A stretch of DNA of 64,000 bases from an uncultured Eubacteriales bacterium (GCA_964541225.1 CAZIPN010000003.1:10007-74006), one strand, 5' to 3'; numbered from the stretch's first letter, positions 14,073 through 33,897 are shown. Notes: generated from the letters alone by a model not told the origin. Translations and numbers: made by a program.

Positions 14073-14158
14073 GTTCTCATCACCGCCTGCGCGCCTTGCC
14101 ATCGCGCGCCTGGTTCTGGAACCCCATTGACAGCCTAGACCCGCTGCCGTGGCTATGC

Positions 14159-14174: not shown

Positions 14175-14210
14175 CACGTTTGACCCCGTCACCTTGTCTC
14201 AGTTCTCCTT

Positions 14211-14663: not shown

Positions 14664-14665
14664 GG

Positions 14666-15772: not shown

Positions 15773-16284
15773 GCGCGACGCTCCTTGATCGACGCGACAG
15801 CGTCTGCGATGACATCGTCGATGTCTCGTCCAACCGTGTCGATGGTGACATCCGCCACGGCCGTGTACAGAGACTCGCGCGCTTCGAGCAAGCGAGTTGC
15901 CGCAAGTACTCCGCCAGGCCCAGAAAGCAGCGGCCGAGTGCCATCCGCACCCACTCGCGCCAGTGTCTCGCCGGGCGATACGCGCAGGTAGACTACCAGG
16001 CCCAGATTCTTGAGCATCGCGCGGTTCTCATCTCGCACCACGATGCCTCCGCCGCAGGCTACGATGCTGGGATCGGCCCCAGATAGCGCGGCTAGCTGAG
16101 CACTCTCGAGTTCACGGAAGGCTTCCTCACCTGCGTCCTCGAAGATCTCCCGCACGCTCTTGCGAGCAGTGGCCTCAATCTCGGCGTCCAGATCGACCCA
16201 CGGACGATCCAGCTGCAGAGCGACCTGCTTGGACACGGTGGTCTTGCCAGCCCCCATGAAGCCTATGAGGAAGACGTGGCTCAC
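15769..16284 (-). CDS. aroK: Shikimate kinase
   Basis: 171 aa. Walker A LIGFMGAGKTTV, then CGGG.V. 4-nt overlaps with aroC and aroB. Confidence 0.9.
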   Translation of the reverse strand: MSHVFLIGFMGAGKTTVSKQVALQLDRPWVDLDAEIEATARKSVREIFEDAGEEAFRELESAQLAALSGADPSIVACGGGIVVRDENRAMLKNLGLVVYLRVSPGETLARVGADGTRPLLSGPGGVLAATRLLEARESLYTAVADVTIDTVGRDIDDVIADAVASIKERRA

Positions 16285-17432: not shown

Positions 17433-17488
17433 GAGCAGAGCCTCCAGATGGGTCAAACCGGACTTTGAAGAGCCATTCCGAAGAAGTC

Positions 17489-17515
17489 TAGCGCCTTGCA
17501 ACGAAGCTGGCGCTA
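17489..17515 (-). terminator. Hairpin overlapping stop codon of the PilP-like gene (candidate terminator/attenuator before aroC)
   Basis: TAGCGCC-N13-GGCGCTA forms a 7-bp stem that includes the TAG stop. The minus strand continues GACUUCUUCGG. The stem-loop is modest, so this is tentative. Confidence 0.35.
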
Positions 17516-18136
17516 CTTCGTGAGACCCTGGCCCACGGTCAGTGTCACCTCTGTGTCGCCATACAGCATCTCGACTTCGGCCTCGCCAACAGTGACGACC
17601 TTCCATGGCGTGCCCGAGAGCGTGTCGCCATTCCCAAGCGTATGCTCGCTACCGTTCCAGATGAAAGTCGCTGTCTTCTCGCCGTTCTCGGTCTGGATGC
17701 TCTCAAGGTACAGCGTGTCCGTTGGAACGTCGGAGGGTTTCACCGATGTGGCCGTCGTCGTTGATGGAATGGCGGTCGGCATCTTCATCGTGGGCGCAAA
17801 GATGTTGCGGAAGGTGAACGTGGACTCAAGCGGTTTCTCGGGAGGATTGGTGATTGGCTGACTGTCGGTCCCGGCGGTCGAAGACGTCGTCGCGCTCCCC
17901 CGACCGACGCTACTCGTTGCCGCGGGAACTGCTCCGTTCGATGAGCCGGAGCTTTGGACGAAGAATCCCACCACGAACATGCTCAGCACGCCAAGGAGCA
18001 CGAGCACCACGATGCCTCCTGCGACGCCGACTATCACCTTGCCACGGGTGCTCGCAAGGAAGGAGGAGCGTTCGGGACTCGGCGCCGGAGAGACTGGCTG
18101 CGAATCGCTGCTGTTGGAAAGATCGGTCACAGTCAC
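17513..18136 (-). CDS. PilP-like pilus assembly protein (TM anchor, S/T/P-rich linker, C-terminal beta domain)
   Basis: It lies directly after pilM-pilN-pilO. It has one TM helix (VIVGVAGGIVVLVLLGVLSMFVVGFFV). The C-terminal ~70 aa (LYLESIQTENGEKTATFIWNGSEHTLGNGDTLSGTPWKVVTVGEAEVEMLYGDTEVTL) has the pattern of PilP/GspC HR-type domains. The call rests on position and pattern only. Confidence 0.45.
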   Translation of the reverse strand: MTVTDLSNSSDSQPVSPAPSPERSSFLASTRGKVIVGVAGGIVVLVLLGVLSMFVVGFFVQSSGSSNGAVPAATSSVGRGSATTSSTAGTDSQPITNPPEKPLESTFTFRNIFAPTMKMPTAIPSTTTATSVKPSDVPTDTLYLESIQTENGEKTATFIWNGSEHTLGNGDTLSGTPWKVVTVGEAEVEMLYGDTEVTLTVGQGLTK

Positions 18137-18142
18137 TCCCTC

Positions 18143-18763
18143 CTACTGCCCGGTGCTCGTCGTTGCGGTGCTGCTCGCTGTCGACGAGGCTGGGATCATG
18201 TACGCCTCAAGTTCAATAGACGTCATCTCCGAGTAGTCTGGGACCGCAGCGTTTTCCTGGCTGGCGAGCGCAGTGTTGTTGGTGACATTGGACGTGGAGC
18301 TTACGAGGCGCACCCCGCGGTTGAGCTTGTACACGCGTTGAAGAAAATCGACAGTGTCAGCCCAGGTTCCAGCTATGTCAACCTTTATCGGAATCGCGTA
18401 GTACTTTGCGCCGGACGTCGGCGCTGAAGGAGTCACTCCGAGTACTTGGACGCCCGACGCAAACGCCGTGTCCTGAAGTTCGACAATGAGTGACGGCAGA
18501 TCCGGATTCTCCGGAACGAGATTCTCAAGCCGAAGCCAGTGCGCGTCCGTCTCGGCAGCTCGGCTCTTGCTCTCCTCAAGCGTCGACAGTTGCGCTTTCT
18601 GCTGGTTGGATTCGGTGTTCGCGCTGGAGATCTGCGCATCGAGACTACTGCGCTGCTGGAATTGCGGAAGCAACAGCACTACGACGAGCACGGCGATGAC
18701 GACCGCGATCCCCACTCCGGCAATGATTATCTGTTCACGCGGGCCGATTTTCATCTGCTCCAC
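18143..18763 (-). CDS. pilO: Type IV pilus assembly protein PilO
   Basis: The order is N-terminal TM helix, coiled coil, then a C-terminal ferredoxin-like region (LPSLIVELQDTAFASGVQVLGVTPS...). Position after pilN. Confidence 0.75.
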   Translation of the reverse strand: MEQMKIGPREQIIIAGVGIAVVIAVLVVVLLLPQFQQRSSLDAQISSANTESNQQKAQLSTLEESKSRAAETDAHWLRLENLVPENPDLPSLIVELQDTAFASGVQVLGVTPSAPTSGAKYYAIPIKVDIAGTWADTVDFLQRVYKLNRGVRLVSSTSNVTNNTALASQENAAVPDYSEMTSIELEAYMIPASSTASSTATTSTGQ

Positions 18764-19510: not shown

Positions 19511-20635
19511 CTACGCCAACTCCCCGAGCGCCAACCCGATGGCCGGAGCACAACCCATCCTATCCGCGAGAACAGCCTGCTCCACGTTCCCTGATGCCGA
19601 CACATGCGAGAGCGGATCGCCGACCACAACTTGCGTCTGCAGTCCCTTCTCCAAGTAGCCCGCGAGGTTGTTGAGCTGCGAACCCGTACCCGTAAGGTAG
19701 ATGCGGGTGATAGTCCGAGCCTGAGTGGCCTGCGTCAAGTAGTAGTCGAGAGAGCGCCGAACCTCGGCGATGAACTTGTTTCCCTCTCGCTCGAGCGCCT
19801 CCTGAGCAGATCGCACATTCGCGTCCGAGATCTCAGGGGAGACCCCCCCGGCTGCGTTCACATCGGGCAAGCCAGCCTGCGACTTCAAGACCTCGGCCTC
19901 ATCAAACGTCAGATTCAACACGTTGGCCACAGCCTGCGTGAATTGATTGCCTGCGAAGGACGAAACGCGAGTGAATCGCGGGATTCCTCGCTCGACAACC
20001 GCAATATTGGTCAAACCCGAGCTAACGTGCACGATGCCGACTGCCTCGCTTGGATTCTCTCCACCTTCATTGAACCAGCTGGGGGTCGTTCCAAGCAGAG
20101 CTCGCACGAGTGCAAATGCGGTGACGTCGACTTGCGCCAGTCGCAACCGCGCGCCCTCAACCGCCTGCACCGCACTTGACACGATCTCGCTTGGCGCTGC
20201 TACCAAGAGCACTTCCATCATGTGCTCGTCGGCTGGCGTCATGTACTCACCGATGATCTGGAAGTCCAGAATGGCCTGATCAACCGGGTATGGAATGTAG
20301 TCTTGGGCCTGGTACTGGATCGCCTTGCTCAGCTCGTCCTTCTCCATGAACTGCAAGTCGATCAGACGGACTACGACTTTCTGACTCGATATCCCGATCG
20401 CGACATCAGAGATCTTGAATCCGTGACGGCGCCACAGTTCTCGGAGTGCTCCCGAGACAGCCTCGGGATCAACGATTTCGCCTTCGACAACAGCTCCAAA
20501 AGGCATGGCTACCCAGCCGTAGTTCGTGAGAACAGGACCGTTGCTCGTCGACTTGATCTGAGCAGCACGAATGAAGTCGGTCCCTATGTCGAGACCCACA
20601 GGTGGTTGCGGGGCGCCGAGAAATCCGGGTGCCAA
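19511..20635 (-). CDS. pilM: Type IV pilus assembly ATPase-fold protein PilM
   Basis: 374 aa with an actin-like/FtsA-like fold pattern (GLDIGT..IR.A, VDV.A.AL.R, LTGTGSQL..L). TTG start at 20635 with GGAGGAGGG 8 nt upstream. Confidence 0.85.
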   Translation of the reverse strand: MAPGFLGAPQPPVGLDIGTDFIRAAQIKSTSNGPVLTNYGWVAMPFGAVVEGEIVDPEAVSGALRELWRRHGFKISDVAIGISSQKVVVRLIDLQFMEKDELSKAIQYQAQDYIPYPVDQAILDFQIIGEYMTPADEHMMEVLLVAAPSEIVSSAVQAVEGARLRLAQVDVTAFALVRALLGTTPSWFNEGGENPSEAVGIVHVSSGLTNIAVVERGIPRFTRVSSFAGNQFTQAVANVLNLTFDEAEVLKSQAGLPDVNAAGGVSPEISDANVRSAQEALEREGNKFIAEVRRSLDYYLTQATQARTITRIYLTGTGSQLNNLAGYLEKGLQTQVVVGDPLSHVSASGNVEQAVLADRMGCAPAIGLALGELA

Positions 20636-21534: not shown

Positions 21535-22380
21535 CTAGCCCGCAAGGTGGACCAGACCCGAATACCAGGACCACAGTTCCGGTCCATACAGCGTGGCAAC
21601 AACGGCCCCCGCGGCAATGAATGGCCCGAAGGGGAATTTGTGTTGCCCACCCTGACCGCTGCGTACTGCGGACGCGATTCCGTATGCGGATCCCAGCAGG
21701 ACTGCGGCGAACAATGCCACGAGCGAATACAAGCCCAGGTAGAGGCCAATCGCGGCCAGCAGCTTGACGTCCCCAAACCCGTACCCTTGGGCCTTCCGAA
21801 TCCGGGAGTACACGAACCCGAGCGCGAAGATCGGTACAGCCGCGACGAGCGCACCTGCCGCAGACGCCACAAGTGGTTGACCCAGCAATCCAGATGCACC
21901 GGTGGCAAACGGAACGATCTTGACGTGGGTGAACTGAGAGACCGCTGATCCCGCCACGCCGACGGCGGCAAGTGATCCCACCAGCGAATTGAGCAACCGC
22001 ATGGTATCCACATCAATGAACGCAAGAAGTAGAAGCAGGTAAAACATGGCAATGGCGGCAACCGCAGTCGGCGTCATCCCAAACCTGAGTCCCGCGAGGA
22101 ACCACAGGACCCCGGAGAGAAGCTCCACAAGCGGGTACCGCAACGGTATGGGCTGTTTGCAGCCTCTGCACTTCCCTCCCAGCACCATCCACGAGATCAA
22201 GGGCACGTTGTCATACCATGCGATGGGAGAACCGCAGTTGGGACAGTGAGACCCGGGGTGCGCAAGCGATTCACCCCTCGGGAGACGCCAGATGACGACG
22301 TTTCCAAACGAGCCAAACACAAGGCCGAACAGGAAGAGAGCTGCCTCATAGAGGGCCGCATTCGCGCTGATGCCAATCAC
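21535..22380 (-). CDS. pilD: Prepilin peptidase / N-methyltransferase (A24 family)
   Basis: 281 aa. Cys-rich N-terminal domain (HCPNCGSPI...CRGC), polytopic membrane region, catalytic Asp contexts IDVDT and GFGDVKLL. GTG start at 22380. Confidence 0.85.
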   Translation of the reverse strand: MIGISANAALYEAALFLFGLVFGSFGNVVIWRLPRGESLAHPGSHCPNCGSPIAWYDNVPLISWMVLGGKCRGCKQPIPLRYPLVELLSGVLWFLAGLRFGMTPTAVAAIAMFYLLLLLAFIDVDTMRLLNSLVGSLAAVGVAGSAVSQFTHVKIVPFATGASGLLGQPLVASAAGALVAAVPIFALGFVYSRIRKAQGYGFGDVKLLAAIGLYLGLYSLVALFAAVLLGSAYGIASAVRSGQGGQHKFPFGPFIAAGAVVATLYGPELWSWYSGLVHLAG

Positions 22381-22544: not shown

Positions 22545-22931
22545 CTAGTCAGTGTAGTTCCCGTGGACATCGCAATCCATCGTTACGGAGTTGCCGCCGG
22601 TGCCAACGGTGAACGTATAGACGCCATTAGCCGGACACGATGCGGTCGTCTTGACGTACGTGGGCACAAATGTGCCGCCGTCGGGGTCAGCGATGGCCTC
22701 GAACGCGGCCTGAGTCATGTCCCCAGCTGTCTGGGGCGTGCCGCCGGAACCCAGGTAGGACTGGTAGCCGCCCTCATACGTACGCTCATTCGCGAAACAG
22801 GCCTTCGTCTGCGCACTCTTCTTCGCGGCATTGAAGATCGGAACGGCGATCGCAACAAGGATACCGATAATAAGCACGACGACCATGAGTTCCACGAGAG
22901 TGAAGCCCTCGTCCTTGCGGAATGTATTCAT
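22545..22931 (-). CDS. pilA: Type IV pilin, paralog 1 (probable major pilin)
   Basis: MNTFRKDEG|FTLVELMVVVLIIGILVAIAVPIF has a 9-aa leader, Gly-1, Phe+1 and Glu+5. ATG at 22931 follows a consensus AAGGAGGTG RBS. It has its own upstream 257-nt intergenic region and a downstream hairpin. Confidence 0.85.
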   Translation of the reverse strand: MNTFRKDEGFTLVELMVVVLIIGILVAIAVPIFNAAKKSAQTKACFANERTYEGGYQSYLGSGGTPQTAGDMTQAAFEAIADPDGGTFVPTYVKTTASCPANGVYTFTVGTGGNSVTMDCDVHGNYTD

Positions 22932-23066
22932 GACCTCGCACCTCCTTCCCCTTTGTAGGGATAGCGTGGGCAACCTGATGCTGTCCACTTGTGACAACGT
23001 GTGTATCGGTCGACCTCTCGGCGACTTGAGCATTCTCGGCACATTTCACCAAAGAACGCGCTCGCA

Positions 23067-23188: not shown

Positions 23189-24409
23189 TCACTTGACGAG
23201 TGTGACGACCTGGAACATGGGAAGGTACAGCGCGATGATCATCCCACCGACGATGACGCCGAGAGTGGCCATCATGAGGGGCTCAATCAGAGATGTCAGA
23301 CCATCGGTTGCGGTAGCGACTTCCTCATCGTAGAAGTCGGCAACCTTGTTGAGCATGGTATCGAGCGCACCCGTTTCTTCGCCAACACCAATCATCTGGA
23401 CAACCATAGAGGGAAAGACCTTCGACTCCGCCAGTGGCTTGGCCAGGGTCTCCCCTTCTTTGATCGCCGAGCGTGCGTGCCGAACCGCACCCGCAACGAT
23501 GTTGTTGCCTGAAGTGTCCGCGACAATGTCAAGCGCAGTCAGGATGGGTACGCCAGCGGAAACCAGTGTGCCGAACGTCCGGCAGAATCGGGCGAGGGCG
23601 ATCTTTCGGACCATCGAGCCGAACACAGGCATGTTGAGCTTGGCTGCGTCCCAGATTGTCTTGCCCGGACCACGTGACCACCACCGGAAGCCGAAGACGA
23701 TGCCCGCCAATGCGACAAGTACCACCAGTCCACCCCACCCCGCAACGAAGTGCGATGCGACTACCAGTGCTTGGGTTACGGCGGGCAGCTCCCCTCCCAT
23801 ATCGTGGAACATCTTCTCAAACGTCGGCACGACGAAGATCATCATTGCCGCCATGACTATGAGGACGAGAGATCCCATGGCGATTGGATAGGTCATCGCG
23901 GACTTCACTTTGGCCCGCAGCGCAAGTTCAGACTCCAGGTGATCCGCCACACGCTGCAGAACCTCGTCAAGCACACCGCCGGTCTCACCAGCGCGAACCA
24001 TGTTCACGAAGATCGGAGGGAACGTCTTCGGGTGCTTGGCAAGTGAATCTGACAGCGATTGCCCGGCCTCCACGTCCTTGCCCAGCTGAGCGATGATCTC
24101 GCGAAGCCCCGCGCTCTCGGTCTGCTGGGAGAGGATCGTCAGGCACTTGGTGAGAGAGAGTCCCGCATTGATCATCGTTGCGAACTGACGCGCGAATATG
24201 GAGACGTCCTTCGACTTAACCCCACTGCCGATCTTGAGCTCGCCAAGTTGCGACAAGGCGCTCTGCTGATCAAGCTCGAGAATGATGTAACCCATCTGAG
24301 CCAGACGGGCCTGCACAGCATCCTTGTTGTCGCCATCAAGCCGACCTTTGACCACCTTGCCGGCCTTGTCGCGAACTGAGTATATGAATGTCGCCATGAT
24401 CTCTCCCAA
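23189..24409 (-). CDS. pilC: Type IV pilus inner-membrane platform protein PilC (GspF family)
   Basis: 406 aa with two GspF-type repeats (FARQFATMINAGLSL...; FCRTFGTLVSAGVPIL...GEETG.LD..L). Confidence 0.9.
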   Translation of the reverse strand: MGEIMATFIYSVRDKAGKVVKGRLDGDNKDAVQARLAQMGYIILELDQQSALSQLGELKIGSGVKSKDVSIFARQFATMINAGLSLTKCLTILSQQTESAGLREIIAQLGKDVEAGQSLSDSLAKHPKTFPPIFVNMVRAGETGGVLDEVLQRVADHLESELALRAKVKSAMTYPIAMGSLVLIVMAAMMIFVVPTFEKMFHDMGGELPAVTQALVVASHFVAGWGGLVVLVALAGIVFGFRWWSRGPGKTIWDAAKLNMPVFGSMVRKIALARFCRTFGTLVSAGVPILTALDIVADTSGNNIVAGAVRHARSAIKEGETLAKPLAESKVFPSMVVQMIGVGEETGALDTMLNKVADFYDEEVATATDGLTSLIEPLMMATLGVIVGGMIIALYLPMFQVVTLVK

Positions 24410-24428
24410 TGCCTCTTGTCAGTCGTCA

Positions 24429-26180
24429 TCAGACGATGACGCGCATGACCTCTTCTATCGAAGTCATGCCTTGCCTGGCCTTCTCAAGCCCATCTTGTCG
24501 CAGGGTCAGCATGCCTTGATCGATCGCGACTTGCTTGATCTCTTCAGCTGTTGCGTTCTCCACACACAGCCTGCTGATTTCCTCACTCATCATCAGCACT
24601 TCGTGGACCCCGACTCGCCCTCGATACCCCGTGTTTCCGCACTTCTTGCAACCCACAGCGCGATACACGACCTCAGGTAGATTGTCGGCAGGGTAGCCCG
24701 CATCTATGAGGACTTCGGGCTTCGGCCGCCACTCCTCTTTGCAGTCAGGACACAGCCTGCGCGCCAGCCGTTGGGCCAGAACGCAGTCAACTGCCGAGGA
24801 CACAAGGAACGGCTCGACCCCCATCTCCGTTAGACGGGTTACTGCGCCCGCCGAGTCGTTGGTGTGCAAAGTGGACAACACCAAGTGCCCGGTCAACGCG
24901 GACTCAACAGCAATCTGCGCGGTCTCCTCGTCACGAATCTCGCCCACCAGAATCACGTCTGGCGAACAACGCAGGAAGGAGCGAAGTGCTCGCGAGAAGG
25001 TCAATCCGGAACGAGCACTTACCTGACATTGGTTGATACCGGGGAGCCGGTACTCGACCGGGTCCTCGGCAGTCAGTATGTGCCGCGATGGGTTGTTCAG
25101 GACGTTGATCGCGGCATACAGGGTGGTCGACTTGCCAGACCCCGTTGGTCCCGTAACCAAGATCGCTCCGTACGGTTTGGTGAAGGACGCCTCGAACCGC
25201 TCAAGCGCCTGCGGCAGGAAGCCAAGATCGGTGAGCTGCAGCAGAATCGAGTCGGTTCTTAGAATACGCAGCACGATGCGTTCGCCGTAGACCGTCGGCA
25301 GAGTCGATACACGGAAGTCCAACTTGTGCCCGCCAACCGTGATCGCGCAGTGGCCGTCTTGCGGCTTGCGTGACTCGGCAATGTCCATTTCTGCCATGAT
25401 CTTGAAGCGGCTGATGATCGAGGTTTGAATGGCCTTTGGTGCTGGCGGCATGGCCTCGTGGAGCACGCCGTCGATGCGAAATCTCACGCGCAAGTCGTTC
25501 TCTTGTGGCTCTATGTGAATGTCAGACGCGCGGTCGGCAACGGCCTTCTGGATGATGTAGTTGACCAGTTTCACCGCCGGCGCCTCTTCGACGACGTCGG
25601 TGAGCTTGTCGAGATCCTGATCGCCGCCAAACTCGTCGACACCGGTCAGCAGTTCCGAGTCTTCTTGTTCTGCGACTTTGTAGTACTCATCGATGGCCGC
25701 GACTATGTCGTCCTTGGTGGAGATGGCCGGTTTGATGTCGTGGCCGGTGATGATGCGCAAGTCGTCGAGCGCGAGAACGTTCTGTGGATCGGCCATCGCG
25801 ACGACAAGAACGTCATCCACGAGTTCAATGGGCATCAGGATGTAACGCGCGGCAAGGTCTCTGCTTACCAGTGCGACGGCCGCAGGCTGTGGACGTCGCT
25901 CGGAGAAGTCGATGTACTCGATACCGATCTGACGCGCCATGACGGAGAGAATGGCACCCTGACTTGCGTAGCCAAGATCTACGAGCACGCGTCCGATCGG
26001 GCTTCCCGTCGCGCGGTACACTTCCAGCGCGTCGTTGAGCTGCTTCTCGGTGATAATCCCGGCCCGCATCAACAACTGACCGAGTCTCTGCCCAGTTTCC
26101 GCCACCAGCGACCTCTTTAGAGATTGCGCTCCCCAACAAGGCGACGCGCTCACGACATTGGAGGCCGGTGCTTCGCGCAT
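24429..26180 (-). CDS. pilB: Type IV pilus assembly ATPase PilB (GspE family), copy 1
   Basis: N-terminal T2SE_N/MshEN-like domain (RLGQLLMRAGIITEKQLNDALEVY-RATGS-PIGRVLVDLGYASQGAILSVMARQ), Walker A GPTGSGKST, VGEIRD, TGHLVLSTLHTN, tetra-Cys CPDC...CKKC. The start is set at the ATG at 26180, 16 nt after the upstream stop. The 250-codon Pro-rich extension of the track ORF is an out-of-frame shadow of 26197..27480. Confidence 0.85.
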   Translation of the reverse strand: MREAPASNVVSASPCWGAQSLKRSLVAETGQRLGQLLMRAGIITEKQLNDALEVYRATGSPIGRVLVDLGYASQGAILSVMARQIGIEYIDFSERRPQPAAVALVSRDLAARYILMPIELVDDVLVVAMADPQNVLALDDLRIITGHDIKPAISTKDDIVAAIDEYYKVAEQEDSELLTGVDEFGGDQDLDKLTDVVEEAPAVKLVNYIIQKAVADRASDIHIEPQENDLRVRFRIDGVLHEAMPPAPKAIQTSIISRFKIMAEMDIAESRKPQDGHCAITVGGHKLDFRVSTLPTVYGERIVLRILRTDSILLQLTDLGFLPQALERFEASFTKPYGAILVTGPTGSGKSTTLYAAINVLNNPSRHILTAEDPVEYRLPGINQCQVSARSGLTFSRALRSFLRCSPDVILVGEIRDEETAQIAVESALTGHLVLSTLHTNDSAGAVTRLTEMGVEPFLVSSAVDCVLAQRLARRLCPDCKEEWRPKPEVLIDAGYPADNLPEVVYRAVGCKKCGNTGYRGRVGVHEVLMMSEEISRLCVENATAEEIKQVAIDQGMLTLRQDGLEKARQGMTSIEEVMRVIV

Positions 26181-26196
26181 CGACCATCGTTCCGAA

Positions 26197-27480
26197 TTAT
26201 CGGAACCGAGCGTTCTCCCCTTTAAGGTCGCCGAGAAGAACGTCGGCGTACTTGCGGAACTTCTCGTAGGTCTTTGTCCCGGCCTTGACGCCAACCCGAG
26301 ACTCCCCAAACCACATCTCGACCGGTGCAACCATCGTGAACTCGGCGTACTCGGCGCGCAGACCAAGCGGGAGTGCCTCCGGCGGGCGCTGGCTCGCGAG
26401 AGACGAACCCGCGGGCGTCTCCAGGTCGACCCGCACGTGCGCGCGCGGACGCACGTGTCGCGGCTCGGGCGAGACAGACGATGTCTGTGCGACGGGCGGC
26501 GCTGCCGCAGGCTCCGCAGCGCGAACGACTGTGGCAGGCCGGGTCTTGGGCACCTCAGGTGCGGGAGCCGGCTCGGGAACTGCAGGGGACACCCGCTCGG
26601 GCGCGACCGAGGGAACGGGCGCTGGGATGGACAAGGGAGGGGCCGCAGGGACGGCCGCAGGCGCAGGTGAGGGTATCGGACGCGGGGCTGGCGCTGGCAT
26701 CGGCTCGGGCTCGGGCTCGGGGGCCGGTATCGGCTCGGGTGCGGGCGCTGAGGGCGGCTCGGGTGCGGGGGCCGAGGGCGGCTCGGGTGCGGGGCCGGGG
26801 GTGGGCTCGGGTGCGGGGGCCGGTATCGGCTCGCGCGACACGGCTGGAGTCGGAGCGGGTTCTGGAATCCACTCAAAGGTGGGAGCAGGCACAACCGCAA
26901 CCGGCTGCGGCGCTTCCAGGCCCGTGTCATGAACTACTTGCGGGACAATGGATTCCAACTCCAAGGTCGCGGGTGCCGGCGGCCTGAGCGACGGCGTGGG
27001 CGAAGGTGGCACTTCCCCGCCGCCCGCTGGCGCGACAACGGGCGGTTGAGCCGGAGGCTCCAGCGGTGCTGGCGGCGTGACCGGAGACGCAGGCGCAGGC
27101 TGTGAGCGCGCCGCAGCCGATCCACCGGTCGTGGACGCAGGTTCGGGGGGCTTGAACGAACCAATGCGCTCGGCAAGCGAGACTTCCCCAAGGCGGCTCG
27201 CCGGAGCAGGTTCGGCGGCGGGTTCCCAATTGCCGACCTTGAGTGGAGCGCGTAGCGACGCGCTGAGGCTATCGGGGTTCATCGGCAAGTCGAGCCCTTC
27301 GAGACTCGCGTCGATGACGCGGTCGGGAGCTGGCGGGAGAGCTGGCCACTCGCCAGGCTGCTGGACCGGCTCGAACTCCTCGTGCTTGCGTGCCGAGCGA
27401 ACAACTGCTGAGAGAAACGCTACCAGCGCGACGAACACGAAGAGGAGCGCCGCTGCGAGGATAGCAAGACGCACCTCCAC
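26197..27480 (-). CDS. Proline-rich single-pass membrane protein (function unknown; part of GTPase cassette)
   Basis: 427 aa. N-terminal TM helix LAILAAALLFVFVALVAFLSAVV, about 300 aa of P/A/E-rich sequence with PAPEPPSA repeats, and a non-repetitive C-terminal block MVAPVEMWFGESRVGVKAGTKTYEKFRKYADVLLGDLKGE. A 2-nt gap from the GTPase stop suggests translational coupling. Confidence 0.6.
   Translation of the reverse strand: MEVRLAILAAALLFVFVALVAFLSAVVRSARKHEEFEPVQQPGEWPALPPAPDRVIDASLEGLDLPMNPDSLSASLRAPLKVGNWEPAAEPAPASRLGEVSLAERIGSFKPPEPASTTGGSAAARSQPAPASPVTPPAPLEPPAQPPVVAPAGGGEVPPSPTPSLRPPAPATLELESIVPQVVHDTGLEAPQPVAVVPAPTFEWIPEPAPTPAVSREPIPAPAPEPTPGPAPEPPSAPAPEPPSAPAPEPIPAPEPEPEPMPAPAPRPIPSPAPAAVPAAPPLSIPAPVPSVAPERVSPAVPEPAPAPEVPKTRPATVVRAAEPAAAPPVAQTSSVSPEPRHVRPRAHVRVDLETPAGSSLASQRPPEALPLGLRAEYAEFTMVAPVEMWFGESRVGVKAGTKTYEKFRKYADVLLGDLKGENARFR
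26722..26835. repeat. 24-nt tandem repeat (~4.6 copies) encoding PAPEPxxA octapeptides
   Basis: The core cggctcgggtgcggg recurs at 26731, 26755, 26779 and (gggctcgggtgcggg) 26803 with exact 24-nt phase. It lies inside the proline-rich CDS. Confidence 0.8.
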
Positions 27481-27482: not shown

Positions 27483-28010
27483 CTACTCCATGCTCTTGAG
27501 GATCTCGTACAGCAGCCCAAGCAGTGCTGCCTTCACCGAATCGCGACTGCGAGCATCTACGGGCAAGAGAGGGGTGTCGTCGGTGAGCTCCAGGTCCGAA
27601 CGCACTCTGCGCAGTGTCTCCTGATCGTCGGCCGAAACCTTGTTCGCGGCAACGATGAATGGCACGTCGGACATCTCTGTGAAGAACCGGATCATGCCTC
27701 GGGTGTCTTCGAACGTGCCGGGTTCATCGGCATCAACCAGCACCACGAAACCGAGCATGCCTTCGGAAAGTGTCTCCCACATGAAGCTGAATCGCTCCTG
27801 CCCGGGAGTCCCAAAGAGGTAGAGCACGACGTCGTCAGAGACCGTGATGCGTCCGAAGTCCATGGCGACAGTCGTCTCACCGTCGCCCTCCCCCGCTGCG
27901 GCACTGATCTGCCGCTCGGTCGAGAGTACGGTGATCTCGCTCACCGACTTGATGAACGTCGTCTTCCCCGCATTGAATGGACCTGTGACAACTACTTTGA
28001 CGGACTGCAT
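27483..28010 (-). CDS. Small P-loop GTPase, CvnD/MglA-like (COG2229-type)
   Basis: 175 aa. G1 is GPFNAGKT. TTVAMDFGRI and LYLFGTPGQERFSFMW follow the Streptomyces CvnD pattern closely. The switch II box lacks Asp, as in MglA. G4 is degenerate (NKVS). Confidence 0.8.
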   Translation of the reverse strand: MQSVKVVVTGPFNAGKTTFIKSVSEITVLSTERQISAAAGEGDGETTVAMDFGRITVSDDVVLYLFGTPGQERFSFMWETLSEGMLGFVVLVDADEPGTFEDTRGMIRFFTEMSDVPFIVAANKVSADDQETLRRVRSDLELTDDTPLLPVDARSRDSVKAALLGLLYEILKSME

Positions 28011-28027: not shown

Positions 28028-30469
28028 CTACAGGCTCTTGATACCATCAATGATCTTCATCAGCGTGTCACGATCGACACGCGCGTCTCGGCGAAGCAGC
28101 GCTTCACCTTCGGCCGGCAGCTTCCGGACACTCGCCGATGGCCTCACTGGACGATCGGCACCGGTCAGTGCCGACAGCTCGTCGGTGAGTTCACCGGAGA
28201 AACTGAAATCCTTCTCCAGCGTCAGGTCGTCGAGATACGCATCCGTGGAGATCACACCCGCAGTGGGCTCTGATGGCTCCTCAAGCAGCGGATTCAACTC
28301 GGCCTCGGGCGCTGGAGCGGCCTCAGCGGCGCCAGCATTCTGCGCATCATCGGCGCTGATATCCAGCGATTCCAGCAAGGCCGAAAAGTCCGCCTCTCCG
28401 CCGACTTCTTGGCCAGCCACGCTGGCAGCCGCCTGCGATGCGGCGACTTCCTCGGACGGCCCCGCGATGCCCATCGGTTCGACAACCGGCTCAAACCCGG
28501 GCGCCTCGGCCTGGGTCTCAGGCACGACCTGCAATTCCTCAGCAGGCGCCTCAGACGCCGGTGCGGTTGGCTCTTCGGATTCGGCGAGTTCTGCTGGCAT
28601 CTCGCCCAGCCCGAGCGCCATCAGGTCATGCTCGAAATCGCCCGGTTGCCCCGCCTCAGCGGTTGGAGCGACCGGGCTGGCCTCGGCGGTCGGCTCAGGT
28701 ACTGCCTCGGTCTCGGGGAATGCGGCCTCGGCCTCAGCAGCGGACACCGCCTCGGGTGAGACAGCCTCCGGCTCACCGGCAGCTACGACCTCAGGAACGA
28801 CGCTGGAGAGAGGCTCAACCTCGGTGACCGCCTCCTCTTCCCCCGGCACCCCCTCGGATTCTGCAGCAGCGGGAACGATGACGAACGTGCCCGGCTCAAG
28901 CGGCGGTGCTGGCTCCGGCGTGACACTTGGTTCTTCGAGGGCCTCGGCAACCGACTGCAACTCGGGCGCGAGTTCGTGCACCGTCACCGGCTCAGGCTCT
29001 GCGGTCTCTTCCGGTGCGGCTTCAGGTGCAGCAGCTTCGAGGACGGTCTCCTCGGCCGACACTTCGGGTGGTGCCTCAGCAGGGACCTCGGGGGCGGCAG
29101 CTTCAGGTGGTGCCTCGGCAGGGACCTCGGGAGCGACCTCAGCAGAGGCCTCGGGCGCGGCGGCCTCAGGTGGTGCCTGGCGAGCGGCCTCGGGTTGCTC
29201 CTCGGGGGCAACCTCCGCTTCCAGCTCGATCGGGGCTTCCTCGGCAGGCGGCGCGAGTTCGGTGAGATCGCCGAGCAACTCCTCGACCGACGGCACCGAG
29301 AGATCTGGACCGGCCTGCGCTTCCTGCGACGCGGCGATGAACGCCGGTTCCTCGCCGGGCGTGTACGGAGCTGCCGGCTTCTTCTCGGCGGGAGCGGCGG
29401 GCTCATGGGGCGCATGCTCCAGCACGGCGCCCATCGCGGCCTCGAGTGCCGCGATATCCTCGGCGGTCGCGGGTTGTGGCTCCGCCCCCAGAAACGTCGG
29501 TACCTCGGCCGCAGCGGCAGGACCGCTCGTGGCTTCGCGCGCGGCTTCCGCCGACTCCTCAGCACCTTGCTCCTCGGCGACTTGGGCCTCGGCGACTTGG
29601 GCTTGCGCGGGGGCAGTCACCTCGGGTTCCTCGGCGACGTGCGGAGCGGCAGCCTGTTCGGCCTCAAGCTCGGCCGCCCTCTGCTTGTCCAACTCCGCTT
29701 GCTTCGCCTCTCGCTCAAGGCGCTCGGCGCGCAAGGCGACGGCTTCTTCGTCGGAGGCAAACTCAAGAAGACCTGCCGAGAACAGACCGTAGACGACGCG
29801 CGCCACCTCAAAATCGGTGGTGTTGATGGCGACCGCAAGCTCAGCAACGGATCGGCTGCCGTCCACGAGCAACAGCAGGTTCCACTCAATCGGCTTCAGG
29901 GATATCTCGAACGTGCCTTCCCCTGGTGCCGTGGCCATCTTGAAAACGATGTCGGTGGACGGGATCTTCTTCTTGATCCGATTCCACTCTTCGAGACGTC
30001 GGCTTCCCTCCATGATCACGTTCTCGATGGAGACGGTCAGGCCGATGTCTTCTTCCAGGGCTTCGGGCATGGCTTCGAACTCGAAATCGCCGTCGTCCCA
30101 GCGCATGAGGTCGAAGATGGTGTCCTGAATCTGCTCCTGTACAAAGACCTCGAGCACCTCATCCGTGATGTAGCCTTCTTCGACAAGAATCTCGCCGAGG
30201 CGCTTTCCACCTTCCGGTTCCGCAGCCCTAAGCTCCAGTGCCCTCTCAAGCGCCATCGGCGTGATGCGCTGCGCGCGCACGAGACGCTCGCCGAGCGGTT
30301 CCGTGCGCCAATTTGACTGGGCGAAGAACACATCCCCCTCGCGGAACCACACGCTGCCCTGTGCGCCGTCTTCTCGGCGAATGCGCAGCACACCGGTCTT
30401 CCCGCTGAAAGTGACCAGCTGGAAGATATCCGGGAGACTCAGTTCCTTGAGATTGCCACGCAATGCCAC
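28028..30469 (-). CDS. DUF4388/PATAN-domain protein with T2SE_N/MshEN-like segment and ~500-aa acidic low-complexity region
   Basis: The N-terminus GNLKELSLPDIFQLVTFSGKTGVLRIRREDGAQGSVWFREGDVFFA fits DUF4388. Next comes LGERLVRAQRITPMALERALELR...KRLGEILVEEGYITDEVLEVFVQEQ (GspE-N-like). A long A/E/P-rich region follows, then a short conserved-looking C-terminus. GTG start at 30469. Confidence 0.75.
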   Translation of the reverse strand: MALRGNLKELSLPDIFQLVTFSGKTGVLRIRREDGAQGSVWFREGDVFFAQSNWRTEPLGERLVRAQRITPMALERALELRAAEPEGGKRLGEILVEEGYITDEVLEVFVQEQIQDTIFDLMRWDDGDFEFEAMPEALEEDIGLTVSIENVIMEGSRRLEEWNRIKKKIPSTDIVFKMATAPGEGTFEISLKPIEWNLLLLVDGSRSVAELAVAINTTDFEVARVVYGLFSAGLLEFASDEEAVALRAERLEREAKQAELDKQRAAELEAEQAAAPHVAEEPEVTAPAQAQVAEAQVAEEQGAEESAEAAREATSGPAAAAEVPTFLGAEPQPATAEDIAALEAAMGAVLEHAPHEPAAPAEKKPAAPYTPGEEPAFIAASQEAQAGPDLSVPSVEELLGDLTELAPPAEEAPIELEAEVAPEEQPEAARQAPPEAAAPEASAEVAPEVPAEAPPEAAAPEVPAEAPPEVSAEETVLEAAAPEAAPEETAEPEPVTVHELAPELQSVAEALEEPSVTPEPAPPLEPGTFVIVPAAAESEGVPGEEEAVTEVEPLSSVVPEVVAAGEPEAVSPEAVSAAEAEAAFPETEAVPEPTAEASPVAPTAEAGQPGDFEHDLMALGLGEMPAELAESEEPTAPASEAPAEELQVVPETQAEAPGFEPVVEPMGIAGPSEEVAASQAAASVAGQEVGGEADFSALLESLDISADDAQNAGAAEAAPAPEAELNPLLEEPSEPTAGVISTDAYLDDLTLEKDFSFSGELTDELSALTGADRPVRPSASVRKLPAEGEALLRRDARVDRDTLMKIIDGIKSL
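29062..29180. repeat. Imperfect 39-nt tandem repeat inside the acidic region (PEVPAEAPPEAAA units)
   Basis: 29062..29100 and 29101..29139 match at 33/39 positions. A third partial copy starts near 29164. Confidence 0.6.
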
Positions 30470-30510: not shown

Positions 30511-31131
30511 TCAGCCGAGAATCTCGGCGATCGTGTCGGCCGTATCTCGCATGTCGTACAGTACGAGCCCGAGCTTCGCCTCAACATCGGCGATGCACGT
30601 CAGCACCGCCTTGTCACCTGCGGCGATGAGCATCACGTAGCCGGTCTCCCCTTCGATGAAGACCTGCGTGAGAGCGCCCCGCCCGAGCTCAGCCGCCGCT
30701 CGCTCGCCGAGCCCAAGGATGGCCGCTGACATCGCACCAACGCGGTCGTCTTGCATGCTGTCTGGCAAAGCCGCAGCCATCGTGAATCCATCCAGCGAAA
30801 CAAGGGCCGCAGCCAACACCTCCTGGTTGTTCTCCATGAGCGCGTCAAGCGCTGCCGCCAGGCGTTCCTCACGACTCGGGCGGTGAGCCACTGCGGCAGC
30901 GCGCGGTTCAGGCGCAGGCGCTTGGACTGGGGCAGGCTCAACAGGAGCGGGAACCTCTGCCGGGGGAGCCGCCGCGGTCGAAACGGGCGGTTCGGCAGGC
31001 GGAGCCGCTTGGGCAGGAGCTTGGGCGGGAGAGCCCGGCACTACAACGGGCGCCGGGAGCAACTCGTCGTCTTCGGCGAAAGCGTCGTCTCCGTCGCTTA
31101 GGAAGAAATCGCCAAATGCATTGTCCGCCAC
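30511..31131 (-). CDS. Roadblock/LC7 (MglB/CvnB-like) domain protein with P/A-rich N-terminal region
   Basis: The C-terminal ~115 aa (LDALMENNQEVLAAALVSLDGFTMAAALPDS...GAMSAAILGLGERAA...VFIEGETGYVMLIAAGDKAVLTCIADVEAKLGLVLYDM) fits Robl/LC7. GTG start at 31131 with GGAGGTG 8 nt upstream. Confidence 0.75.
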   Translation of the reverse strand: MADNAFGDFFLSDGDDAFAEDDELLPAPVVVPGSPAQAPAQAAPPAEPPVSTAAAPPAEVPAPVEPAPVQAPAPEPRAAAVAHRPSREERLAAALDALMENNQEVLAAALVSLDGFTMAAALPDSMQDDRVGAMSAAILGLGERAAAELGRGALTQVFIEGETGYVMLIAAGDKAVLTCIADVEAKLGLVLYDMRDTADTIAEILG

Positions 31132-31282: not shown

Positions 31283-32956
31283 CTAGACCACCACGCGAAG
31301 TATCTCTTCGATTGAGGTCAGGCCCATCTTCACCTTGGCGAATCCGTCGTCTCGCAGCGTGAGCATCCCTTCGTCAATCGCGGAGCGCGCCAACACGTCC
31401 GATGAAGCGTTCTCAACCGTAAGTCGCTCGAGGTTCTCCGACATCCGCATGACCTCGTGAATACCCATCCGGCCCTTGTAGCCGATGTCGTTGCACTTCT
31501 TGCATCCGCGAGCTCGATAGAGCTTCGGTGGATTCCCTGGCTCGAAGGGGAAGCCTATGCGAGTCAGCACCGCCTCCTCGGGCGTGTACTGTTCCTTGCA
31601 ATCGGGGCACAGGCGCCGAGCCAGTCTCTGAGCCATGACAAGCGTGATCGCGGACGCCGAAAGGAACGGCTCGATGCCCATCTCGGTGAGCCTCGTGATC
31701 GCCGAGGGCGCATCGTTGGTATGCAGCGTCGACAGCACGAGATGTCCGGTGAGCGCCGCCTCGATGGCGATCGTGCCAGTCTCCTTGTCGCGGATCTCGC
31801 CGATCATCACCTTGTCCGGGTCCTGCCTCAGGATGGAACGCAGGGCAGACGCGAACGTGAGTCCGGCCTTCTCGTGAACTTGCACCTGAGACAGGCCCGC
31901 AAGCCTGTACTCAACCGGATCCTCGACAGTGATGAGGTTCGTCTTGGGATCGTTCGTTTCGTTGATCGCCGCATAGAGCGTGGTCGACTTACCCGAACCG
32001 GTTGGACCGGTGACCAAGATGGCGCCGTACGGAAGCGCGAGCGCTTCCAGCAGCATCCGCAGGTTGTACTCCAAGAAGCCCAGGTCTTTCAGCGACATCA
32101 TGATCGCGTCCCGGCGCAAGAGACGAAGCACAGCCATCTCGCCGTTCACTACGGGCAAGACCGCCACCCGGAAATCAACTGCTTTGCCGTCCAGTACCAC
32201 GCCGAAACGACCGTCCTGCGGTATGCGCCGCTCGGCGATATCCATGCCGCAGCTGATCTTCAGGCGGCTCACCAGCTGTCGATGCAGCTTCTTCGGCAGT
32301 GTGTTGACTACCTGGCACACACCGTCAATCCGAAAGCGAATGCGCAAGTCACGCTCACCCGGCTCGATGTAGATGTCGCCCGCACCGCTGCGGATCGCCT
32401 CGGTCACAATCTGGTTCATGAGCCGAACGACCACCGACTCGGCGCTTGCCTCCTCGGCTTCCTCCTCGGCCGCAACGCCAACCTGCTGTTCGAGGTCACC
32501 GACCATGTCGCCAACGTTTGTCTGCGAGGCGCTGAATCTCTCGATCGCCGAGAGTAGCTCGCTCTCCGCAGCAACGACCGGTCGAATCTCCCTGCCGGTG
32601 ACGATGCGCACGTCATCGATCGCGAAGATATTGGCCGGGTCGGCCATGGCAATGATGAGTTCGTCGTCTTGCACCTTGATCGGCAGGACAGCGTAGCGGC
32701 GCATCAGATCCAACTTGAGCAGAAGCGCTGCGTTTGGATCGATCTCGTAGGCTCCGATGTCGACGTAGGGCAAGCCCATGGATTCAGCCACGGCCTTGGC
32801 GACGGTGACTTCGTCGGCGAAGCCGAGTTCGTCAAGAACGTGCGGAAGCGGACGACCGTCAGCGACTGCCACTGCCTCGGCAAGTTGCTTGTCATCAATC
32901 AAGCCGGTGCCCACAAGGAGCCGGCCCAATCGCATGCTGTTGGCCGCTGCCGCCAT
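31283..32956 (-). CDS. Type IV pilus/T2SS-type assembly ATPase (GspE family), copy 2
   Basis: 557 aa. N-terminal T2SE_N-like domain (RLGRLLVGTGLIDDKQLAEAVAVA), Walker A GPTGSGKST, IGEIRD, TGHLVLSTLHTN, CPDC...CKKC. The full-length PilB architecture distinguishes it from the shorter PilT. Confidence 0.85.
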   Translation of the reverse strand: MAAAANSMRLGRLLVGTGLIDDKQLAEAVAVADGRPLPHVLDELGFADEVTVAKAVAESMGLPYVDIGAYEIDPNAALLLKLDLMRRYAVLPIKVQDDELIIAMADPANIFAIDDVRIVTGREIRPVVAAESELLSAIERFSASQTNVGDMVGDLEQQVGVAAEEEAEEASAESVVVRLMNQIVTEAIRSGAGDIYIEPGERDLRIRFRIDGVCQVVNTLPKKLHRQLVSRLKISCGMDIAERRIPQDGRFGVVLDGKAVDFRVAVLPVVNGEMAVLRLLRRDAIMMSLKDLGFLEYNLRMLLEALALPYGAILVTGPTGSGKSTTLYAAINETNDPKTNLITVEDPVEYRLAGLSQVQVHEKAGLTFASALRSILRQDPDKVMIGEIRDKETGTIAIEAALTGHLVLSTLHTNDAPSAITRLTEMGIEPFLSASAITLVMAQRLARRLCPDCKEQYTPEEAVLTRIGFPFEPGNPPKLYRARGCKKCNDIGYKGRMGIHEVMRMSENLERLTVENASSDVLARSAIDEGMLTLRDDGFAKVKMGLTSIEEILRVVV

Positions 32957-32959: not shown

Positions 32960-33859
32960 CTAGCCACTCACCTCCGAGCCATTGCGGACCGCGAGTTCGC
33001 GTTGGGCTGCGGCGCGCATGGTCTCTCGCGGGGTTCGCACTTGCGCATCGGCATTCCAAATGTCTACGGCGGTCGCGCCCTGTGCGACAAGCATGCCGAG
33101 ACCATCAAGAACGTGCGCGCCAGCTTCGCGACCGCCAGTGACGAGCCGCGTGGGAACGGCGGTGCCATATACCATGTCCAGCACTACCTGACCTTCCGTC
33201 AGCCATTCCACCGGCACGGGACTCTCTGCCTCGGGATTCATTCCGACCGGGGTGGCGTTGATGACGAGGTCGGCAGCGCCAACCACGTCTTCGGCTTCCT
33301 CCTGAGTGACGGCATCCAAGTCGATGCCTCCCGCCCGAGGAGCCATTCTGTCGAGAAGTTCTTCGGCACGTTCGAGGCTGCGGTTAACCACTGTGATCCT
33401 GGCGCATTTCGCCAGAATCAGCGCGACGAATGCGCCAGCTGCCGCCCCGCCTGCTCCTAGGAGCACCACCGACTTGCCGGAAGGATCGAAACTGGCATCA
33501 GTCGAGAGTGACTCGAGCAAACCTCGGCCATCCGTGTTGTAGCCGATCAGCCGCCCATCTGAGGTGCAGTGCACAGTGTTCACCGCCCCGGCCATGCTTG
33601 CCGCCATGGCTACCTCATCACACAGTTCGAGGATCTCTTCCTTGTAGGGCATCGTGATGTTGAACCCCACGAATGGCAGCGAGCGTATCGCGGTGACAAG
33701 ACTTCTCAGCCCGCCCTCGTCCTGCACGGCGAGGGGAACGTAGACCCAGTCCAGTCCCAGCTCCTGATAGACCGCGTTGTGCATCGCCGGTGAGAGTGAG
33801 TGATCGAGTGGCCACCCGATCACTCCCGCCAGTCTGGTCGTCCCCTGGATGCGAGTCAT
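32960..33859 (-). CDS. aroE: Shikimate dehydrogenase
   Basis: GVIGWP..HSLSPAMHN, NITMPYK and GAGGAA motifs. The start is set at MTRIQG (ATG at 33859) behind GGGAGGAAGG. Confidence 0.9.
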   Translation of the reverse strand: MTRIQGTTRLAGVIGWPLDHSLSPAMHNAVYQELGLDWVYVPLAVQDEGGLRSLVTAIRSLPFVGFNITMPYKEEILELCDEVAMAASMAGAVNTVHCTSDGRLIGYNTDGRGLLESLSTDASFDPSGKSVVLLGAGGAAAGAFVALILAKCARITVVNRSLERAEELLDRMAPRAGGIDLDAVTQEEAEDVVGAADLVINATPVGMNPEAESPVPVEWLTEGQVVLDMVYGTAVPTRLVTGGREAGAHVLDGLGMLVAQGATAVDIWNADAQVRTPRETMRAAAQRELAVRNGSEVSG

Positions 33860-33897
33860 GGAACCTTCCTCCCGTTCGCACAAGACGGCGGCGCCGC

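Follow-up and report, generated by a model that had tools for sequence, protein, structure and literature searches.

The DNA analysed here, in the following called the window, is a stretch of 64,000 nucleotides from an uncultured Eubacteriales bacterium (GCA_964541225.1, CAZIPN010000003.1:10007-74006). It encodes on its minus strand, on which all genes and protein features described below lie, a cluster of type IV pilus genes, and between the two PilB genes of this cluster a PATAN-family scaffold protein of 813 amino acids (aa) with a GTG start (28028..30469), which is the subject of this study. PATAN domains act in the control of pilus polarity, phototaxis and heterocyst patterning and their mode of action is poorly understood. 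An original prediction made from the DNA sequence had noticed in this protein a tandem motif resembling the cyclic di-GMP (c-di-GMP)-binding motif of MshEN domains, together with a long acidic disordered region, and had proposed that the protein may mimic the N-terminal domain of PilB. It had named a comparison with the MshEN profile, the predicted fold and the conservation of the motif in orthologs as observations by which this idea could be judged.

The PATAN protein and its helical insert

The protein was assigned from its open reading frame (ORF) and translation and from a match to Pfam DUF4388 (E=1.4e-32), which runs from aa 4 to 163 and covers the whole domain profile (model positions 1-122 of 122). 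Its N-terminus, MALRGNL, agrees with the N-termini of the orthologs. In an AlphaFold2 model of the N-terminal 260 aa, which has a predicted local distance difference test score (pLDDT) of 92.4, the PATAN core is split into two parts. The N-terminal part (aa 1-57; 30299..30469) contains the strand 4-6, the helix 12-22 and the strands 26-31, 37-43 and 46-52, and the C-terminal part (aa 114-168; 29966..30130), which is also covered by the Pfam match, contains the strand 128-133 and the helix 148-168. Inserted between both parts is the alpha-clip, a four-helix segment of the MshEN_N type (aa 58-113; 30131..30298), which is indicated by the NCBIfam model NF053729, a family profile, Foldseek and the AlphaFold helices. 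In the model its helices comprise residues 59-65, 71-83, 91-97 and 103-122, and these four helices (aa 59-122) sit between strand 46-52 and strand 128-133 of the PATAN core. The clip consists of a first, partly degenerate motif, PLGERLVRAQRITPMALERALELR (aa 58-81; 30227..30298), the spacer AAEPEGGK (aa 82-89; 30203..30226) with eight residues compared with five in canonical MshEN domains, and a second, near-consensus motif, RLGEILVEEGYITDEVLEVFVQEQ (aa 90-113; 30131..30202).

The tandem motif is the alpha-clip, an alpha-helical insertion within the PATAN domain. As the DUF4388 envelope spans aa 4-163 and a core strand and helix follow the clip, the motif lies inside DUF4388 and not downstream of it, where it had been placed originally. 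When the clip was deleted in silico, DUF4388 model positions 1-122 were still matched with 87 bits, and the clip alone aligned to model positions 44-85.

C-terminal to the PATAN core follows a predicted winged-helix-like domain (aa 175-240; 29750..29947), which in the AlphaFold model is composed of the strand 175-178, the helices 193-201, 208-214 and 219-231 and the strand 235-237. For this region the family profile matches MarR/ArsR regulators weakly (E 0.007-0.05), and Pfam HTH matches are weak as well (E about 0.08). A Foldseek search of the PDB with the whole 260-aa N-domain model returned weak winged-helix matches of about 70 aa, and no PATAN structure was among the matches. An assignment of the region as CvnC/DUF742 was considered and discarded, since no DUF742 match was found at E<=10. 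Neither Pfam nor NCBIfam gave a match to Response_reg (receiver domain) in the PATAN protein, in which it differs from the PatA-type response regulators (PATAN-REC); its C-terminal 570 aa are made up of low-complexity linker and a conserved end of 75 aa. In some giant relatives (P0161, P0165 and P0168; 1,455-1,492 aa) five or six PATAN-clip-winged-helix modules are arranged in tandem.

Homology of the clip to MshEN_N and its conservation

Compared with the published consensus RLGxx(L/V/I)(L/V/I)xxG(L/V/I)(L/V/I)xxxxLxxxLxxQ, motif 2 agrees at nine of the eleven fixed positions, and at all eleven if the relaxed motif of Wang 2016 is applied ([RKPN]hGxxhhxx[GAS]hhxxxxhxxxhxx[QNKRYWST]; PMC5013675). 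Motif 1 agrees at seven positions under the strict and at nine under the relaxed form, its mismatches to the latter being the Q at position 10 and the R at position 11. The tandem motif with an 8-aa spacer described earlier is present at aa 58-113, with motif 2 as the near-consensus and motif 1 as the degenerate half. Due to the longer spacer the tandem motif comprises 56 residues in all, compared with the 53 residues of an MshEN_N domain with a 5-residue spacer.

NF053729 is a curated model with 53 positions and a cut-off of 38 bits, which is annotated as 'cyclic di-GMP-binding domain-containing protein, MshE-related'. It matches the full PATAN protein with 44.0 bits (E=1.4e-11), aa 58-113 spanning model positions 1-53, and it scores 46.1 bits for the N-domain and 49.1 bits for the isolated clip segment, both above the cut-off; moreover, 47 of 66 diverse PATAN-protein homologs are matched with E<=1e-9. 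A phmmer search of all PDB sequences with a 73-aa segment returned MshEN-type N-domains as top matches (PilF 7.7e-7, MshE 5HTL 3.4e-4, Geobacter PilB 1e-3). A profile built from 66 homologs increased the significance to 1.4e-21 for PilF, 7.7e-14 for Geobacter PilB and 1.2e-10 for residues 5-62 of MshE (5HTL), i.e., exactly the c-di-GMP-binding domain of Vibrio cholerae MshE. The predicted fold points in the same direction. For the clip modelled alone (pLDDT 77.7), the best Foldseek match among 350,542 chains was 5htl_B, MshE with c-di-GMP, with a root-mean-square deviation of 0.8 Å over 57 columns and a template modelling score of 0.68, and the five best matches were all MshE or PilF GSPII domains, with the c-di-GMP-bound GSPII-B and then GSPII-A of PilF as runners-up; the E-values of these matches are weak (0.2-0.7) because the query is short, and AlphaFold may have learned from 5HTL.

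The Pfam model MshEN (PF05157), which matches both PilB proteins of the locus, gave no match on the PATAN protein at E<=1, which could be taken to mean that a helical segment rich in Leu and Glu, unrelated to MshEN, resembles the motif by chance. However, PF05157 covers the C-terminal subdomain and not the four-helix motif, so that its absence is uninformative: in PilB1 (numbering of an 833-aa ORF discussed below) it matches aa 336-422, behind the tandem motif at 282-334. The PATAN protein lacks this MshEN_C (T2SSE_N1) alpha/beta subdomain, the clip being followed directly by the remainder of the PATAN core. With NF053729 at E=1.4e-11, the family profile matching MshE at 1e-10 and 5HTL ranking first in the fold search, a chance resemblance is refuted and its probability is practically negligible. 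By sequence and predicted fold, the clip and the four-helix module by which MshEN_N binds c-di-GMP are truly homologous. The profile comparison (44 bits against the cut-off of 38) and the predicted superposition on 5HTL both came out in favor of the proposed resemblance.

The clip shares 34% identity with the PilB1 of its own locus, 25% with PilB2 and 28-38% with MshE or PilF. It is no closer to its neighbors PilB1 and PilB2 than to MshE and PilF, and a recent duplication of a neighboring PilB N-domain, i.e., mimicry by copy, was rejected for this reason; the clip is an old feature of PATAN domains.

This relationship has been described before. The alpha-clip as an insert of two repeated helix hairpins and its likeness to the N-termini of pilus ATPases are credited to Makarova 2006 by Han 2021 (bioRxiv 10.1101/2021.06.11.447907), and that PATAN and PilB share a partner or compete for it was already proposed by Han 2021 (bioRxiv 10.1101/2021.06.11.447907). 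Furthermore, the predicted c-di-GMP binders of Myxococcus xanthus given by Wang 2016 (Supplementary Fig. 3c and Table 3; PMC5013675) include MXAN_3211, which was named a PATAN-domain protein elsewhere (PMC11580455). In the segment of it aligned in Wang 2016, 'ASSNQPREFFGQFLINMGHLTEDQL...FHWDGDFLF', PATAN and clip are arranged just as they are in the window protein. The latter thus resembles known alpha-clip PATAN proteins such as MXAN_3211 and the Synechocystis proteins PixE and PixG in its DUF4388 core split by a helical insert and in its link to type IV pili. It differs from them in its winged-helix-like domain, its acidic linker of roughly 490 aa and its conserved C-terminal helix. Of the proposed resemblance between the PATAN protein and a PilB N-domain, the homology to MshEN_N stands, but neither the resemblance nor the idea that both share or compete for a partner is new. 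The insight was sound but a rediscovery: the domain relationship, the curated model and the mimicry idea all existed before, and for the most part a relationship known from the literature has been found again in an uncultured lineage that is new.

To follow the clip within this lineage, 84 sequences were aligned, which originate from 80 species-level genomes found in a genome-contig scan, almost all of them metagenome-assembled genomes of uncultured Coriobacteriia, and from three loci obtained via protein look-ups. The glycines G60 and G92 and the residues L59, L74, L78, L91, L106 and V110, which are equivalent to the guanine-clamp residues L10, L25, L29, L39, L54 and L58 of MshE, are all present in the window protein. 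Among the 84 orthologs, conservation in motif 1 amounts to 100% for G60, 99% for L59, 100% for L74 and 95% for L78, and in motif 2 to 96% for R90 and 99% each for L91, G92, L106, V110 and Q113, while the 'x' positions off the ligand contact vary freely. The conservation of the motif, one of the points on which the original prediction could have failed, thus reaches 95-100% at the contact residues. The deviations of motif 1, too, hold throughout the clade: residue 58 is P, L or Q, with Arg in a single sequence of the 84, residue 67 may be Q, G or N, residue 68 is without exception R or K, and at 81 an R, Q or H is found. Eight spacer residues are present in 73 orthologs and seven in 11. Outside the MshEN consensus the family shows specific invariant residues, namely R62, R/K68, E98, E107, F109 and E112.

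A search of 1.84 billion cluster representatives with the N-domain identified 13,824 relatives at E<=1e-3, of which 546 reach E<=1e-30. In a sample of 127 of the best representatives (40-88% identity), the pocket residues are conserved at about 95-100% as well, the canonical G is found at position 67 in 76 sequences and Q at position 81 in 63, and the spacer comprises five (34 sequences), seven (50) or eight residues (39). Judged by these alignments, the PATAN protein of the window is a mildly diverged member of a family with a canonically MshEN_N clip.

Acidic tail, gene cassette and the two PilB ATPases

Behind the winged-helix-like domain the protein continues with an acidic, A/E/P-rich low-complexity linker of about 490 aa (aa 245-738; 28256..29737), which was delimited by composition, charge, repeats and conserved islands, and it ends with a conserved C-terminal region (aa 739-813; 28031..28255), which was recognized by blastp to homolog C-termini and from the 80% consensus of 66 orthologs. 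Over aa 261-813, 127 Ala, 105 Glu and 72 Pro residues were counted among 553, and the net charge is -108. Tandem repeats are present at the DNA level (29074-29194, period 63, 84% matches; and 29555-29602), in agreement with the long acidic region with repeats that had been reported. For full-length orthologs, the medians are 658 aa for the total length, 338 aa for the linker, 52% for the A+E+P content and -76 for the net charge, the window protein with 813 aa being near the top of the length range; in wider relatives similar tails reach up to roughly 1,100-1,200 aa and net charges down to -240. The tail is acidic and A/E/P-rich as described, but it is not featureless. The last 75 aa contain ISTDAYL, DELSALTG and the terminal helix VDRDTLMKIIDGIKSL, all conserved at the 80% level over the 66 orthologs, and the helix is still recognizable in relatives at 45-50% identity. 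Within the linker, two islands recur in homologs, PTFLGAE...DIAALEAAMGAVL at about aa 323-351 and DFEHDLMALGLGEMP at about aa 611-625. This recurrence suggests that the islands are docking peptides rather than pure spacer, and the tail as a whole looks like a flexible acidic tether with docking peptides.

The genes of the locus are, in the order of transcription, aroE (32960-33883), PilB2 (31283..32956), a Roadblock/LC7 protein (30511..31131), the PATAN protein, a small Ras-superfamily GTPase (27483..28010), a membrane-anchored Pro/Ala-rich protein (26197..27480), PilB1 (24429..26105), PilC (23189-24409), a pilin (22545-23042), a prepilin peptidase (21535-22380), PilM (19511-20635), PilO (18143-18763), aroC (16281-17606) and aroK (15769-16284). 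In about 80 species-level genomes the PATAN gene has PilB2 on one side and PilB1/PilC on the other, and the order PilB2-(Roadblock)-PATAN-GTPase-(anchor)-PilB1-(PilT)-PilC is kept in essentially all loci that are long enough.

The GTPase, identified by its P-loop GPFNAGKT, the G3 motif TPGQ and matches to Pfam ATP_bind_1 (2.8e-18), Ras (8e-8) and TIGR00231 small_GTP, starts 17 nucleotides past the PATAN stop codon and follows the PATAN gene directly in nearly every locus reaching far enough, an adjacency found also in the non-pilus locus L084. The Roadblock/LC7 protein (Pfam Robl_LC7 7e-17; PDB relatives include CvnB5 and 3leq) has an Ala/Pro-rich N-terminal extension of roughly 90 aa, so that three genes of the consecutive series (Roadblock, PATAN and anchor) encode long low-complexity regions. 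A Roadblock gene precedes the PATAN gene in many orthologous loci, as well as in L084 and L085. It is absent from L001 and L002, two orthologous loci at greater distance that encode short PATAN proteins (327-374 aa). The membrane-anchored protein, which has no Pfam or NCBIfam match, ends with the conserved C-terminal domain EMWFGESRVGVKAGTKTYEKFRKYADVLLGDL. Its family is characterized by an N-terminal transmembrane helix, a Pro/Ala-rich linker of 150-400 aa and a conserved C-terminus of roughly 40 aa with the consensus VEMWFG[DE]xR[VI]GVKxGTKTYxxFxxYAxxLFxDL (e.g., in L004, L008, L017 and L074). An ORF of >100 aa is present behind the GTPase in 66 loci; most of the 40 such ORFs listed start within about 10 nucleotides of the GTPase stop and have a hydrophobic N-terminal segment, and the listed ORFs that are complete and unbroken have the same C-terminal motif at their end.

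The Roadblock-PATAN-GTPase triad also exists away from pilus genes, namely in relatives at about 47% identity. In L085 (443-2632) it stands outside a pilus cluster, and in L084 (2192-7704), where the Roadblock gene is present as three tandem paralogs and the PATAN protein has 1136 aa, these genes and that of an ATP_bind_1 GTPase lie beside a NiFe hydrogenase. As the triad recurs outside pilus loci, it is the conserved functional unit, and the link to the pilus is specific to this clade. PATAN genes adjoining MglA/MglB homologs were reported earlier (PMC4316618), and the window PATAN gene, which adjoins MglA/MglB-type genes, is in this respect like PATAN genes in general. With a Roadblock protein, a winged-helix-like middle protein and an ATP_bind_1-type GTPase in that order, the cassette resembles MglA/MglB modules and the conservon (CvnB, CvnC, CvnD), and its Roadblock protein is related to CvnB5. 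Unlike in the conservon, the middle protein is PATAN-based and no CvnA/sensor histidine kinase flanks the cassette, the neighbors being PilB2/aroE and anchor/PilB1.

Two PilB ATPases frame this cassette. For PilB1 (Pfam T2SSE and MshEN), the ORF of 833 aa (24429-26930) turned out to be over-extended, its first roughly 245-275 codons running out of frame over the membrane-anchor gene. Stop codons in orthologs just upstream of VAE(A/T)GQRLG place the real start at GTG 26105, giving an extension ATPase of 558 aa that matches PilB2 (557 aa, assigned by Pfam) in length. The MshEN_N tandem motif of PilB1 (25929-26087; RLG...-RATGS-PIG...) has the 5-residue RATGS spacer and passes NF053729 with 56 bits. 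The module of PilB2 (32783-32932) is more degenerate, as had been noticed, with 24-28 bits, below the cut-off, and a Pro at the critical Gly of motif II; this Gly is absent, with RPLPHVL or close variants in its place, from all 12 orthologs listed. PilB1 looks c-di-GMP-competent and PilB2 c-di-GMP-blind. With its motif decayed in the same loci in which the PATAN clip is kept, PilB2 is at the sequence level an internal control.

Several further observations were made in the surroundings. No PilT-like retraction ATPase is found between PilB1 and PilC in the window (23189-26105) and in its closest relatives, and many orthologous loci have a T2SSE ORF of roughly 350-380 aa at this place (compare L001 10324-11388 and L002 10402-11538). 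The pilus and GTPase cluster is nested in shikimate genes, with aroE upstream (32960-33883) and aroC, aroK, aroB and aroQ downstream (14211-17606); the aroE-PilB2 junction is also present in L001 and L002. A second pilin-like gene (11579-12265) with an N_methyl motif is flanked by genes for a 656-aa CarboxypepD_reg/SpaA-like protein and a 471-aa protein without family match, and these genes (10149-14192) may encode minor pilins or adhesins.

Unlike the known alpha-clip PATAN proteins, the window protein is encoded in the pilus cluster of a monoderm, a member of the Coriobacteriia, with a PilB paralog to either side of its gene. New are this family of the Coriobacteriia, the four-gene cassette of which is framed by the PilB pair, the occurrence of three MshEN_N modules in graded states at a single locus, and the giant acidic tail with conserved peptides.

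Possible c-di-GMP binding and a proposed role in pilus control

For c-di-GMP binding by the clip there is evidence on both sides, and we assign to it a likelihood close to, though not quite reaching, an even balance. The NF053729 score was considered as predictor of binding and rejected. Computed on individual transcribed segments, it amounts to 86.2 bits for V. cholerae MshE and 84.5 bits for PilF GSPII-C, both binders, 68.5 bits for Geobacter PilB (binding status not stated), 63.8 bits for the binder PilF GSPII-B and 54.6 bits for PilF GSPII-A, a proven non-binder, which thereby outscores the window clip (44-49 bits). The clip as candidate has 49.1 bits, close to the 46.5 bits of the MXAN_3211 clip, a predicted binder, and they are followed by PilB2 of the window (28.5 bits, below the cut-off), the predicted non-binder MXAN_1145 (26.6 bits) and the non-binder VC2424 PilB without match. 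As GSPII-A passes the model, a passing score is no proof of binding.

For MshE it was shown that binding needs the position-3 glycines and the leucine clusters, that substitutions of G11 and G40 abolish it, and that alterations of Arg9 or Gln32 shift the affinity less than fivefold (PMC5013675). Like MshE (5HTL) and GSPII-B and GSPII-C of PilF, the clip has two tandem 24-residue motifs and a predicted four-helix bundle, in which the glycine at position 3 of either motif, all six clamp residues and the Gln of motif 2 are present. It differs from these domains in its location within a PATAN domain rather than at the head of an ATPase, in the absence of MshEN_C/T2SSE_N1, in motif 1 with its P at position 1, Q at 10, R at 11 and R at 24, in the spacer of eight instead of five residues and in its NF053729 score of 44-49 bits, well under those of MshE (86) and GSPII-B and GSPII-C (64 and 85). 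The deviating first residue of motif 1 has precedents: PilF GSPII-B, with K and L as first motif residues, binds c-di-GMP with a dissociation constant (KD) of 6 nM, and GSPII-C, the motif of which begins with Pro (P335), with a KD of about 460 nM (PMC11731258). The turn residue Q67 should, from the helix topology given in the description of 5HTL, sit at the bundle end opposite to the ligand.

Several points weigh against a c-di-GMP pocket and its link to the GTPase switch. On NF053729 the window clip remains below the proven non-binder GSPII-A (49.1 vs 54.6 bits), and in GSPII-A itself restoring the consensus did not lead to binding until the N-cap and the inter-subdomain contacts were removed as well (PMC12002112). 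In motif 1 of the clip, Q67 takes the place of the turn Gly, position 68 is basic and position 81 has R for Q, and the acidic 8-residue spacer adjoins the putative site at the bundle end that joins the PATAN core. A c-di-GMP binding assay of any PATAN clip was not found in the literature searched. No GGDEF, EAL or HD-GYP gene is among the ORFs scanned in the window, which says little about the whole genome. Finally, the GTPase is not a close MglA ortholog, as it is not close to solved MglA by phmmer and its top PDB matches are Sar1, Ras and Rab.

GSPII-A also provides the model for a different function of the clip. It has the same fold and the higher NF053729 score (54.6 bits), does not bind c-di-GMP and was proposed to be a landing pad (PMC12002112). 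The clip might likewise be a ligand-free protein-docking surface, in which the MshEN_N fold and the motif residues are kept for structure and partners, and the PATAN protein would then act only via the GTPase/Roadblock switch and protein contacts, possibly occupying the site used by the PilB N-domains. Such a role, which we consider plausible while still holding some more doubt than belief, is in line with the cyanobacterial PATAN domains of Synechocystis, which work by binding to PilB1 and PilC (bioRxiv 10.1101/2021.06.11.447907) and for which no nucleotide is known. The family-specific invariants R62, R/K68, E98, E107, F109 and E112 point to a conserved protein interface, and motif 1 and spacer are off consensus. 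In its predicted MshEN_N fold, its one good and one degraded motif and its NF053729 range the clip is indeed similar to GSPII-A. However, in GSPII-A the second of the critical glycines is replaced by Ala (A41) and the site is blocked by helix alpha1, which is extended and N-capped, whereas the window clip keeps both glycines and has Pro58 ahead of helix 1, which begins at residue 59 in the model. Moreover, where selection for c-di-GMP is presumably absent, as in PilB2 of this locus, XpsE and VC2424 PilB, the motif decays exactly at the ligand contacts, whereas the PATAN clip retains both glycines, the six clamp residues and Q113 at 95-100%, in relatives down to 40% identity. Pocket and docking surface overlap as explanations, since an MshEN_N module can both bind the ligand and dock proteins.

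It is very improbable that the clip binds another cyclic dinucleotide, cyclic GMP-AMP (3',3'-cGAMP) or c-di-AMP, instead of c-di-GMP. Wang 2016 observed a discernible, weaker interaction of cGAMP with MshEN, and the unlike half-sites of the clip (P for R and R for Q in motif 1) could suit an asymmetric ligand. However, the guanine-clamp leucines and the glycines are retained in both halves, and no MshEN-type domain preferring another dinucleotide was found in the literature consulted.

The reading of the clip as c-di-GMP pocket can be placed in the context of the locus. We propose, with slightly less than balanced confidence, that the PATAN-family scaffold and the products of its two neighboring genes, the Roadblock protein and the small GTPase, jointly regulate the type IV pilus motor, the genes of which lie to either side, with the clip as c-di-GMP pocket. 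In this mechanism, the scaffold would couple the Roadblock/GTPase switch to the pilus motor through the PATAN-clip module, and the clip would bind one c-di-GMP at the junction of clip and core, where the N- and C-termini of the helices converge. Occupancy by the ligand may alter the docking of the PATAN module on PilB or PilC, the docking itself being as in the cyanobacterial PATAN domains. The GTPase/Roadblock switch and the acidic tail with its short motifs and its C-terminal helix would tether or position the complex, and c-di-GMP input to the locus would occur via PilB1 and the PATAN clip and not via PilB2. A further step, which we regard as unlikely though conceivable, would be that the c-di-GMP-loaded PATAN scaffold and the Roadblock/GTPase switch pick which of the two PilB motors engages the pilus platform, with the acidic tail and the membrane-anchored Pro-rich partner positioning the complex.

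The locus offers a test set within one operon, comprising the near-consensus module of PilB1, the intermediate PATAN clip and the decayed module of PilB2. If the scaffold does choose the motor, the type IV pilus system of a monoderm would have a module for polarity or motor selection that is gated by a second messenger. If the alpha-clip is a working c-di-GMP pocket, this would establish a PATAN domain as a nucleotide receptor for the first time and would provide a direct path from c-di-GMP to Ras-like GTPase switches, and PATAN proteins in their thousands would have to be regarded as candidates for second-messenger receptors, given the 13,824 representatives that match the N-domain.

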